Positions 3,054 to 55,006 of a stretch of 64,000 bases of DNA are shown piece by piece. The stretch's first letter is position 1. The number at the start of each line of letters is the position of its first letter. The position numbers were made by a program, and so were the translations under genes. The notes under the pieces were generated by a model that worked only from the letters and a program-made list of their open reading frames with translations, was not told the DNA's origin and did not search any database. This stretch comes from Candidatus Bathyarchaeota archaeon. Its GTDB lineage: Archaea; Thermoproteota; Bathyarchaeia; Bathyarchaeales; Bathycorpusculaceae. Location: positions 1-64,000 of the forward strand of contig CAVYRJ010000009.1 of assembly GCA_963770935.1 (NCBI GenBank), written 5' to 3'.

Positions 3054-3842
3054 ATGTCGTCGCTTAGAGAAGTTTTAGACAAAGTTGCTTCGAATCAGAT
3101 TTCGCCCGCTGAAGCCGAAAAAATCCTGCAATTGCTCACAATTGACGAGGTTGGTTGTTTAGCTAATCTGGATGGGAGGAGGGGGCTCCGCAAGGGGATT
3201 CCTGAGATTATTTTGGCAGAAGGCAAATCGGCAAGTGATGTAGCGGAAATTTCTCGGCGGATGGTTGCTAATTGTGGGCGAGCGATTGTGAGCCGTTGCG
3301 CTAAGGAACATATTTTGGCGGTTAAAGAAGCATTTCAAAACGATGTACAGATGGAAATTAACGATAAAGCCCGAATGGTTGTAGTCAAAACGAAAGGTTT
3401 CAACATTACTCCAAGCGGGGGTCGAATTGGGATTTTAACGGCTGGGACCTCCGACATCCCTGTAGCTGAAGAAGCCAAAATCATCGCTCAAGAGATGGGC
3501 TGCACTGTTTATTCGACCTACGATGTTGGGGTCGCAGGAATTCACAGGTTGATTGAGCCACTAAAACAGGTATTCTCAAACGATGTTGATGTTGTAGTAG
3601 TTGTAGCTGGACGTGAAGGCGCTTTGGCGTCTGTGGTTTCTGGGTTGGTTGATGTTCCAGTTATCGCGGTTCCAACCTCTAATAGTTACGGTTTTGGCGA
3701 AAAGGGATTGAGTGCGCTTATGGCTATGCTTCAGTCGTGTTCGTTAGGGTTGGCAGTTGTTAACATCGATGGCGGCGTATCTGCGGGTGCAGTTGCGACG
3801 TTAGTTGCTAATCGCGCTGCCAAATTCAGAAAAAACCCTTAA
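3054..3842 (+). CDS. larB: NPN cofactor carboxylase/hydrolase LarB (PurE-like)
   Basis: GIPEIILAEGK, TAGTSDIPVAEEA, DVGVAGIHRL, PTSNSYG, VNIDGG. Confidence 0.92.
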   Translation: MSSLREVLDKVASNQISPAEAEKILQLLTIDEVGCLANLDGRRGLRKGIPEIILAEGKSASDVAEISRRMVANCGRAIVSRCAKEHILAVKEAFQNDVQMEINDKARMVVVKTKGFNITPSGGRIGILTAGTSDIPVAEEAKIIAQEMGCTVYSTYDVGVAGIHRLIEPLKQVFSNDVDVVVVVAGREGALASVVSGLVDVPVIAVPTSNSYGFGEKGLSALMAMLQSCSLGLAVVNIDGGVSAGAVATLVANRAAKFRKNP

Positions 3843-45917: not shown

Positions 45918-46090
45918 AGTTTGGTGCTCCCTAAAACTCTGTTTATCGGAATGCCATCCAATAGGAAGTAGCATCATGTAATCGTTCCGTGGGATTTATT
46001 AATATTTCGCCCAACCTCCCGAATCCAACGTGTTAGTTTGGAAGGGCGTTTCCTAAACATTTTTATGTTCGCTTGAAGGTTTCAATGCAA

Positions 46091-46160
46091 TTGGCGGGTG
46101 AGTGGATTCTCCTACCCGTTCCGCCAAGAGAAAAATAAAACCCGGGAGTAGGGAGAAAAA
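46091..46160 (+). promoter_or_regulatory. Structured 5' leader of queT-queC (candidate riboswitch)
   Basis: TTGGCGG/CCGCCAA stem, loop TTCTCCTACCCG complementary to the RBS region CGGGAGTAGGGAGAA, A-rich linker; TATA-like TTTTTATG about 25 nt upstream. Confidence 0.55.
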
Positions 46161-46164
46161 TCGC

Positions 46165-46692
46165 TTGAAAATACGTACAAAAGATTTAGCTTTAATCTCG
46201 ATCTATGCTGCACTCTATGCAGCACTTGTAGTTGTTCTTGGAGGATTCTCTTATGGACCCGTTCAGGTCCGCATCGCAGATTCGATGCTTGCGGCGGTCC
46301 CCCTGCTTGGTATAGCAGGAGTTTTGGGGCATACGCTTGGAGTATTCGTTGCTAACATATTCTCGCCACTTGGTCCAATTGACCTACTTAACACTGTACC
46401 TTCATTTGCCATGTCTTTTGTTGTGTACTATGTTTACAAATGGACAAGAAATGACTATACCGTTATCGGAACATGCCTAGCTTACTCTGCTGTCTTAGGA
46501 GTAACCGTTGGATCGATGTTATCTTATGTTTTATCACTGCCACTGCTTCCCACCATAGCGTATGTAGCCATTGGAAATGTTATTGCTAGTGTGCTAATCG
46601 GATGGACGCTGTTTAAGGTATTAAAGAAAATCGGGTTGTTCCGAAGGTGGTTTCCAGAAAGAGATAACAGAACCTATGAAGCACAAAATTAG
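46165..46692 (+). CDS. queT: QueT-family 7-deazaguanine precursor transporter (TTG start)
   Basis: AALYAAL...SYGPVQVRIAD...G.FVANIFSPLGPID. Confidence 0.85.
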   Translation: MKIRTKDLALISIYAALYAALVVVLGGFSYGPVQVRIADSMLAAVPLLGIAGVLGHTLGVFVANIFSPLGPIDLLNTVPSFAMSFVVYYVYKWTRNDYTVIGTCLAYSAVLGVTVGSMLSYVLSLPLLPTIAYVAIGNVIASVLIGWTLFKVLKKIGLFRRWFPERDNRTYEAQN

Positions 46693-46715: not shown

Positions 46716-47372
46716 ATGAAACAGAACAAAAAATGCGTCATCGTTCTTAGTGGTGGACCAGACTCCGCCACGGTTGCCTACTGGGCAAAGGCGCAGGGTT
46801 ACCAAATCTACCCCATAACGTTCAACTATGGACAAATCGCCCTCAAAGAAACAGAATCCGCAAGAAAAATCTCTGAAAAACTCGGCACAACCACCAAAAT
46901 CATTGACCTCTCAGCACTTAAAGAAATCTTTATCAGTGTAACTTCGCTCTGTAACATCGACATTCCGTTAACCACTGAGTTTAGTGCCCCAATCATTGTG
47001 CCGTTTCGCAACGCCATATTCCTTTCAGCAGCAGTTGCTTACGCCGTCGCAGTTGGTGCTAACATGATCTTTTATGGTGCCCAAGGCTCAGATGAACCTT
47101 TTTACCCTGATTGCCGACGAGAATTTTATGAAGCGTTCGAGAAAGCTGCAAAACTGGGCACATGCCAAGAAATTACCATCCAAGCACCCTTCAGCGGCAA
47201 ACGCAAATCAGACCTGTTCAAAGCAGGCGCAGAGTTAAGGGTGCCTTTCGAACTCACATGGTCCTGTTACTTAGATAGAGCAAAACACTGCGGTAAATGC
47301 GAATCCTGTAATAACCGAAAAAAAGCCTTCCAAGAAGCAGGAGTAGCAGACCCAACGAAATATGAAAACTAA
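46716..47372 (+). CDS. queC: 7-cyano-7-deazaguanine synthase
   Basis: SGGPDS, VPFRNAIFL, YPDCR, TWSCY...CGKCESC. Confidence 0.95.
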   Translation: MKQNKKCVIVLSGGPDSATVAYWAKAQGYQIYPITFNYGQIALKETESARKISEKLGTTTKIIDLSALKEIFISVTSLCNIDIPLTTEFSAPIIVPFRNAIFLSAAVAYAVAVGANMIFYGAQGSDEPFYPDCRREFYEAFEKAAKLGTCQEITIQAPFSGKRKSDLFKAGAELRVPFELTWSCYLDRAKHCGKCESCNNRKKAFQEAGVADPTKYEN

Positions 47373-50902: not shown

Positions 50903-51267
50903 TAATCCTAAGCTATCTTTTTAGCGATATAACCTTTGTCCGAAAAATCCCTGATTGAATCTAAGAGTACCAGTCAATTAAGGCTGGCGTTAACAGTGCT
51001 GTTAAGTCCTGAGTTAAGGTGTTTATTTGGTCGCAGCTGAGTTGACTGTAGGAGCAAACCTTCTTGTTCACACTTATCACAAAAGACTATGGCTAAGTTA
51101 ACTCATAAATTTTTGTATAAAAACAACGAAAAAAAACCAATCAAAACAAAATAAAAACCTCTTCAGCAATATGACAAGTTACGCCATGCATAGACCAAAC
51201 ACTTCACTTCACACCGTACCGAAAGATGCGTCTCAACCAAATATCGCTCAGACACTACATTGACTCG

Positions 51268-54290
<3,023 letters not shown>

Positions 54291-54929
54291 GGCCAATGGT
54301 AGTGTCTGTTTGGCGTTTGGTGAAACACATATTTCATTGTATAGTGTGTTGCGTCGTTGTTGTTTGGCCTATGCATGGTGTCATTGTGAGCTACTAGTGA
54401 CTTAAGTCGCTCATTCACCCTTCACTCCACACTAGTTAGGTGGGGAGTTGCATCTCAGTTTTTATGGTATAACCCATATTGCTGAATTGCATTAGAAGCG
54501 GAATTCGTTAATATAAGTGTATCGTTGGACAGCTGCATGGTTTGTTGGCGTTGTTTTTGTGCGTGGGTCTGCTTCTTTTGCTCTTCACTCGAGCAAATGT
54601 TTTGTTGCCGAGTTGCATTTGTGGGGAACCTTACTAGCAGCTTTCCGCCATATAAGATTGTCGTACCATATAGAACAACATTGATACTTTTTGTTCTGTT
54701 CAAACCCAATTGGAAATGGAATTTAGGTTTTTTTATGTCTAGACTTTCTTTTTAGGGCATCATTGCACCCTGCGGGCAAATTCGCAGAAAAATTATAGAC
54801 CTACGTATAAAGGTCAGTATTCTAAGCAAAAAAAGCTACTATTGACTAGCTTACTTTTTAATATTTAGCAGTAACTTTTATTTGGGTTGTGTTTTATGTG
54901 TTGGTGTAATCTGGGGAAGTTTGTCGGGT

Positions 54930-55006
54930 GCCTCGATAGCTCAGCCCAGTAGAGCGGCTGCCTTGTAAGCAGCAGGCCGCGGGAGCAAGGCCCGCTCGAG
55001 GCTCCA
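54930..55006 (+). tRNA. tRNA-Thr(TGT) with atypical D- and T-loops
   Basis: Acceptor GCCTCGA/TCGAGGC, anticodon arm GCTGC-CTTGTAA-GCAGC, T stem GCGGG/CCCGC, encoded CCA. Confidence 0.88.

Follow-up and report, generated by a model that had tools for sequence, protein, structure and literature searches.

What kind of RNA lies between the promoter and the first codon of the queT–queC locus in the Bathyarchaeia, and does it sense a product of the pathway that these genes serve? Here we follow up this question for a stretch of 64,000 nucleotides from a Candidatus Bathyarchaeota archaeon (contig CAVYRJ010000009.1, hereafter the window, to which all unlabelled positions refer). A sequence-only reading of the window had proposed that the short queT leader is a new or divergent 7-deazaguanine-sensing riboswitch, in which an H-type pseudoknot hides the ribosome-binding site (RBS) and an alternative pairing frees it. 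Archaea are, to our knowledge, host to very few known classes of riboswitch, and a 2017 survey names only the TPP and fluoride riboswitches as common there (PMC5473149). Our analysis leads us to consider it likely that the leader (about 46088–46164) represents an undescribed, archaea-specific riboswitch class sensing a 7-deazaguanine, most likely preQ0, a view built on comparative sequence analysis.

The queT–queC locus and its leader

The first gene of the locus encodes an ECF-type S component of the QueT family (PF06177, E 1.4e-22). The PF06177 profile begins at residue 8 counted from TTG 46165, and QueT orthologues align from residue 1 of the protein that starts there, which bears out TTG 46165 as the queT start that the sequence-only reading had preferred. 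That reading had named GTG 46102 as the rival start that would speak against a riboswitch. Translation from this codon was rejected, as no more than 31 of 98 loci have a leader GTG in frame with and open to QueT, and the length of the leader, between 56 and 88 nt, covers all residues modulo 3. The second gene encodes 7-cyano-7-deazaguanine synthase QueC (PF06508, 208.5 bits; TIGR00364, 194 bits, with an NCBIfam cut-off for QueC of 150.3 bits). It follows queT after a gap of 23 nt and is probably co-transcribed with it; queC is immediately 3′ of queT in 67 of the 142 loci with room for it (the sets fetched overlap, and loci are shared between them). Upstream of the leader in the window, a divergent gene encodes a proteasome subunit.

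Two further observations concern the surroundings and the start codons of these genes. A 23S rRNA gene (51261–54295, −) and a tRNA gene (54930–55003, +) lie a few kb downstream of the queT locus, and a 23S gene is also found near the orthologous locus L004. Four QueT genes downstream of the motif (L047, L103, L123 and L128) have an open frame without ATG, GTG or TTG near the Shine-Dalgarno (SD) sequence, possibly reflecting non-canonical starts (ATA, ATT, CTG) or sequencing errors.

The stem, the loop complementarity, the A-rich linker, the TATA-like block and the start codons are all present in the sequence as the sequence-only reading had described them. Two covariance models were used to follow the motif in other genomes: R1, built from the leaders of 25 congeners, and R2, built from 100 order-wide matches, whose alignment is referred to as A4. 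The elements of the locus, with strands and loops named S1, S2 and L1–L3, are as follows.

46060–46067, + strand: TTTTTATG, a TATA-like promoter element with an A-rich stretch before it, as seen in the sequence and in the 100-locus alignment
46088–46161, + strand: whole motif as matched by R1 (94.9 bits, E 1.3e-21) and R2 (73.7 bits)
46091–46097, + strand: S1 5′ strand UUGGCGG, pairing with 46121–46127 (7 bp)
46098–46106, + strand: loop L1, GUGAGUGGA, with G46098, U46099 and G46102 invariant
46107–46118, + strand: S2 5′ strand UUCUCCUACCCG (DNA TTCTCCTACCCG), an anti-SD mimic, pairing with 46143–46157 with bulges
46119–46120, + strand: L2, the invariant UU at the S1/S2 junction (UU in 100/100 A4 copies)
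46121–46127, + strand: S1 3′ strand CCGCCAA, covarying with the 5′ strand
46128–46142, + strand: L3, an A-rich linker ending in A-A-A-N-C-C, with A46137, A46138, A46139, C46141 and C46142 invariant
46143–46157, + strand: S2 3′ strand CGGGAGUAGGGAGAA (DNA CGGGAGTAGGGAGAA), containing the SD sequence GGGAG at 46151–46155
46165–46692, + strand: queT, ECF-type S component (QueT family), TTG start
46716–47372, + strand: queC, 7-cyano-7-deazaguanine synthase

Comparison of related leaders shows the predicted RNA to be an H-type pseudoknot, in the order S1 5′ strand, L1, S2 5′ strand, UU, S1 3′ strand, A-rich L3 and S2 3′ strand, with a second helix formed between an anti-SD-like strand and the SD sequence. 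S2 comprises 10–13 pairs with bulges, the pseudoknot ends 9 nt before TTG 46165, and model matches span 63–83 nt, for an element of about 70 nt. The nested minimum-free-energy fold of the leader is ordinary (z = −0.23), and RNAalifold, which cannot draw pseudoknots, returned S1 and a 3-bp inner hairpin. Chance is excluded not by folding energy but by the recurrence of the same leader before queT across the order, the class and beyond, together with compensatory changes.

Distribution and covariation of the pseudoknot

Of 61 related genomes, 51 contain a QueT orthologue, and 27 of the 30 loci fetched share the leader within the 220 nt upstream. The leader is nearly identical in 25 congeners, in which QueT is 59–87% identical, and recognisable in two further families, in which QueT is 41–43% identical. 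A search of the order with R1 matched 114 of 151 genomes (83 of 105 high-quality genomes, 53 of 63 genera and all 12 families), and a search of the class with R2 matched 96 of 151 genomes (74 of 95 high-quality genomes and 55 of 79 genera). In a phylum-wide draw, R2 matched 30 of 151 genomes, 17 of them outside the class and 15 of these 17 at E ≤ 3.3e-5; three large families in this draw gave no match (0/19, 0/13 and 0/13). In the R1 and R2 draws there is mostly one copy per genome.

A degenerate pattern was also scanned against one genome per species of all prokaryotes, giving at least 119 stretches, 80 of which were listed. With a confirmation threshold of at least 38 bits, R2 confirmed 57 of the 80 matches listed, all 57 archaeal by record title; among the matches listed, these comprise 47 from Bathyarchaeia or Bathyarchaeota, 2 from Methanomethylicota, 4 from Nitrososphaerota or Nitrososphaeria, 3 titled only 'archaeon' and 1 labelled Promethearchaeota. 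The 23 bacterial-titled loci among the 80 listed fail R2 and are taken as chance matches. The Promethearchaeota (Asgard)-labelled match (L203:4965–5024, 53 bits) touches the end of a MAG contig, and could either be genuine, placing the motif outside the phylum, or reflect wrong binning. In the window itself, R1 has a second, weak match at 3269–3335 (+; 16.3 bits, E 0.062), which is probably due to chance.

The sequence-only reading held that conservation and covariation should be seen in orthologous leaders if the structure is real, and both helices S1 and S2 are indeed conserved and covary in relatives. The pseudoknot is 96.9% paired in a MAFFT alignment of the 25 congeners that was not fitted to it, compared with 37–64% in a control in which the 3′ partners were slid by 1–3 columns, and three pairs have changes on both sides. 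The proportion paired is 91.7% in A4 and 89.0% in A6, an alignment of 96 more diverse matches; in each of the two, 12 of 18 pairs have changed on both sides and the covariation score was reached by 0 of 500 shuffles, although the sequences are related and the changes are not independent events. In S1, double-sided changes are seen at 5 (A4) and 4 (A6) of the 7 pairs, examples being GC to CG, GC to AU and GC to UA. The S1 core GGCGG/CCGCC is kept, and variants in relatives include GACGG/CCGUC and UUGCGG/CCGCAA. Because S1 was never in the model structure, its covariation is unfitted. In S2, to which the corresponding columns of A4 and A6 were fitted, double-sided changes are seen at 7 (A4) and 8 (A6) of the 11 pairs, and there are wholesale replacements of the helix by UUCCGAC/GUCGGAA (L190 and L191), CCACC/GGUGG (L188 and L189) and CCA/UGG (L142).

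Ten unpaired positions are invariant in 100/100 A4 copies, namely the G, U and G of L1 (columns 11, 12 and 15), the UU of L2, and five positions at the end of L3 (columns 62, 64, 65, 67 and 68, occupied by A, A-A and C-C). L1, which is 6–14 nt long, starts with an invariant G-U-R-R-G, and L3 varies from 7 to 21 nt in A4. Among the divergent copies, L2 is AU in L026 and L193 (the same place). Invariance in A6 is partly by construction, since 57 of its 96 rows come from a pattern that fixes part of S1, L1, L2 and L3. Fixed single-stranded bases at a helix junction, combined with variable spacers, would be the usual signature of a ligand pocket, and the UU of L2 is likely part of the predicted pocket.

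A variant of the motif, 'type B' (L026, L145, L148, L192 and L193), occurs in several families and in another class. It keeps S1, the GUGG of L1 and the AAACCCC end of L3, and has AAA in place of the CGG of S2, so that CCG(U/A)U is left unpaired; the GGUU(U) of its L1 could pair with (A)AACC of L3. The junction model thus does not extend to all copies, since S2 has no CCG/CGG part in type B.

Predicted switch, regulon and ligand

Counted from the C of GGCGG, on which the 100 order-wide loci were aligned, positions −36 to −29 hold a T-rich block at a fixed distance, with T at −33 in 73/100 and A or T at −32 in 97/100. The fixed distance of this promoter block suggests that the transcript starts at the motif, and transcription would begin about 2–3 nt before S1, near 46088–46090. 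In most relatives the S2 3′ strand carries GGAGGUG, and in the window GGGAG. The S2 5′ strand in relatives contains CACCUCC or CCUCCCAC, identical to GGAUCACCUCCU, with which the 16S rRNA ends 3′ in three relatives (a 16S gene was not found in the source assembly). With the SD sequence in the S2 3′ strand, the S2 5′ strand thus mimics the anti-SD of the ribosome.

On the alternative hairpin, our analysis departs from the sequence-only reading in one detail of the pairing. The best-supported helix lies inside the S1 loop and pairs GUGG (46102–46105) with CUAC (46112–46115), which is not exactly the GGGTGAG/CTC..ACCC register it had given; that register is possible in short-loop variants. Across 93 distinct sequences the GUGG/CUAC helix is 96% paired, and at a single pair AU, CG and GC each take the place of UA in one case. 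Its support is modest because one slid control register is still 72% paired, and we propose it only tentatively as the ON-state hairpin. The nested energies are −16.1 kcal/mol for the S1 hairpin with GUGG/CUAC, and −9.8 for S1 and −10.0 for S2 in the pseudoknot, and by this estimate the two conformers would be close in energy.

In the proposed mechanism, the 5′ leader of queT–queC would serve as an aptamer with an integrated expression platform. In the ligand-free state, the S2 5′ strand would be held in the small hairpin with L1 inside the S1 loop, leaving the SD sequence free and allowing queT and queC to be translated. Binding of a ligand at the S1/S2 junction, in a pocket to which L1 contributes its invariant G-U, L2 its UU and L3 its A-A-A-N-C-C end, would lock the pseudoknot and bury the SD sequence, so that both import and synthesis are OFF in the ligand-bound state.

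The genes downstream of the motif belong largely to one pathway. In all 100 A4 loci the next open reading frame encodes QueT (99 above the Pfam cut-off and one cut by the contig end). Among 115 further instances, QueT is directly next in 96 and there is no room downstream in 5; six of the remaining instances are weak model matches, and eight are strong exceptions. In L272 and L139 (the same place), the motif is followed by queC and then queT. In L224 it is followed by a QueE-like radical-SAM protein, whose five best NCBIfam families are all QueE with scores below the cut-offs, and then QueC, and in L216 by a QueE-like protein. In L250 it is followed by a 277-aa membrane protein and then QueC, in L188 and L189 QueT lies beyond a longer spacer, and in L264 the downstream gene is ambiguous. 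The membrane-like protein of L250 (5727–6557, −, in a Bathyarchaeia record) gives no match in Pfam or NCBIfam, and could be a further transporter of deazapurines. A regulon of queT, queC and queE-like genes fits a 7-deazaguanine as the putative ligand; a transporter with queC and queE is the kind of regulon placed under bacterial preQ1 riboswitches in a 2024 review of the preQ1 family (PMC11625349).

It is conceivable that no small molecule is sensed, and that the pseudoknot is a protein-bound or constitutive translational operator, such as a repressor target, or an element that does no more than set a low level of basal translation or mRNA stability. S2 is long, bulged and GC-rich and might form unaided without ligand, favouring a constitutive or protein-assisted structure, and the weak support for switching conformers points in the same direction. 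We regard this as quite improbable, because the ten invariant unpaired nucleotides around the helix junction are typical of a ligand pocket, the downstream genes encode the transport and biosynthesis functions of one small-molecule pathway in varied gene orders, and the element persists in several classes without a conserved neighbouring regulator gene, the neighbour in the window encoding a proteasome subunit.

For a ligand-sensing riboswitch, the deazapurine physiology of the hosts bears on the identity of the ligand. The source genome (G000, 91% complete) encodes one archaeal-type TGT, in a 552-aa open frame, and QueC. Neither QueD nor QueF was found in it, and the QueE model gave only generic radical-SAM matches of ≤ 30 bits and no clear QueE. 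QueD is present in 13 of 151 class genomes, and a strong motif match in 4 of these 13 (same class draw). The scarcity of QueD in the class suggests that salvage via QueT is the main route, and hence worth regulating, and that most of these archaea may salvage a 7-deazaguanine in this way. The lineage looks auxotrophic for 7-deazaguanines, and the retained QueC may mean that 7-carboxy-7-deazaguanine (CDG) is imported. We favour preQ0 as the most likely ligand since queE, queC and import all converge on it, and since the base used by archaeal TGT for archaeosine is preQ0, not preQ1 (PMC5372724); the choice of preQ0 over preQ1, CDG and other deazapurines follows pathway logic only.

A riboswitch of the same architecture might instead bind preQ1, CDG, archaeosine base, queuine or guanine, and we hold this to be unlikely, though several points bear on it. 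Bacterial queT is placed under preQ1 riboswitches in two articles (PMC11625349, PMC5372724); against preQ1 stand the preQ0-based formation of archaeosine in archaea, as given in the latter, and the failure to find QueF, its maker, in the source genome. Import of CDG, the substrate of QueC, is possible given that queC is kept and that QueD and a clear QueE were not found. In addition, a paralogous QueT with a different leader occurs in the genus, and both leaders are present in one genome, which hints at two specificities. Joint end-product control of queE, queC and queT, however, speaks for preQ0, which in the archaeal pathway is the final free base.

Relation to the preQ1 riboswitch classes

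Scanning of the whole window with cmscan gave no match to preQ1-I (RF00522), preQ1-II (RF01054) or preQ1-III (RF02680) at the gathering threshold, and the three models gave no match at E up to 10 when 401 nt or 86 nt were searched. The preQ1-I (RF00522) and preQ1-II (RF01054) models also gave no match in 8 related loci. No Rfam family matches the leader itself, and the only one near it is a weak snoRNA-like match on the opposite strand (E 1.1). Given the lack of a match to preQ1-I, -II and -III, 'new or divergent', the term chosen in the sequence-only reading, is the right description.

Minimal preQ1-I riboswitches are about 34 nt in size and have a P2 of 3–4 pairs, whereas the element described here spans 63–83 nt, with an S2 of 10–13 pairs with bulges and an L1 of 6–14 nt; class I is bacterial and the element archaeal. 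According to the 2024 review, the features shared with preQ1-I are the H-type order, an A-rich L3 that crosses stem 1, a second helix with its 3′ tail at or near the RBS, and the control of queT and que biosynthesis genes, and type 3 of this class (RF00522 comprises types 1–3) shows full SD occlusion (PMC11625349). The element might on such grounds be a very divergent, expanded member of preQ1-I, retaining the H-type fold with P2 and L1 lengthened and the specificity position altered. Its strands follow one another as in class I (P1, L1, P2, L2, P1′, A-rich L3, P2′), a short CCG/CGG helix directly follows the A-rich tail, and a 'type 2' leader in the genus combines class-I-like proportions with a shared A-rich-CC-CGG ending. 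Membership in class I nevertheless seems doubtful to us, as RF00522 fails to match on 86 nt even with E relaxed to 10, the element is about twice as large, and its S2 has 10–13 pairs as opposed to 3–4. The AC/UC specificity motif before the P1 3′ strand, described for class I in the same review, is here an invariant UU, with UU in 100/100 copies where class I has its specificity cytosine (PMC11625349).

The 'type 2' leader (L028, L029, L318, L319, L320 and L322, in the window's genus) precedes the paralogous QueT, which is ~32% identical. It is almost invariant, and comprises a stem of 5 bp (GGUAG/CUACC), a loop UUU, the triplet CCG, a short loop rich in A and U that ends in AC, and an A-rich tail before CC-CGG. 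Its proportions are class-I-like, and no Rfam model matches it. Of 401 class genomes, 5 contain its exact pattern, each of them from the window's genus, and genome G030 carries both leaders (L321 and L322).

PreQ1-II (the COG4708 or queT motif) resembles the element in its near-exclusive position before queT, the inclusion of the whole SD sequence in the pseudoknot helix and a similar length, but is described in the review as an HLout pseudoknot with four helices (P1–P4) and an embedded hairpin, restricted to Bacillota (PMC11625349). The leader described here has two covarying helices only, in H-type order, without a conserved embedded hairpin in L3, and its hosts are Thermoproteota-type archaea. 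PreQ1-III shares with it the pathway and the kind of downstream genes, and differs, by the same review, in its size of ~100 nt, its five helices and an SD sequence located in a distal docking helix outside the aptamer (PMC11625349). The leader shows what is generally expected of a riboswitch, that is, a structured RNA with covariation and invariant unpaired bases, in cis to genes of one pathway. By these comparisons, the element appears to work like preQ1-I, -II and -III, yet falls outside each class by the features that define membership.

A full-text literature search covering the main texts of openly available articles found no archaeal preQ0, preQ1 or queT riboswitch; the element could stand in supplementary motif lists of large ncRNA surveys. 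The word 'archaea' is absent from the 2024 preQ1-family review (PMC11625349), and preQ1, QueT and queuosine are absent from the main text of a 2026 preprint that clusters prokaryotic intergenic regions. A more specific reading of the element as a putative fourth, structurally distinct, archaea-only 7-deazaguanine riboswitch class, selective for preQ0 over preQ1 and exerting the main control over the salvage of archaeosine precursors in Bathyarchaeia and neighbouring classes, is in our judgement evenly balanced between true and false.

If the leader is the riboswitch proposed here, an archaea-specific class would occur in the majority of the genomes sampled from a class of archaea that is abundant worldwide. 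It would provide a natural aptamer, probably tuned to preQ0, and a clear case of SD-based translational control in Thermoproteota-type archaea. The scarcity of QueD in the class further suggests a dependence on environmental 7-deazaguanines, an ecological dependency that is testable. Should the fourth-class reading be true, most of the hosts would be without the de novo pathway, and so reliant on deazapurines made by others.
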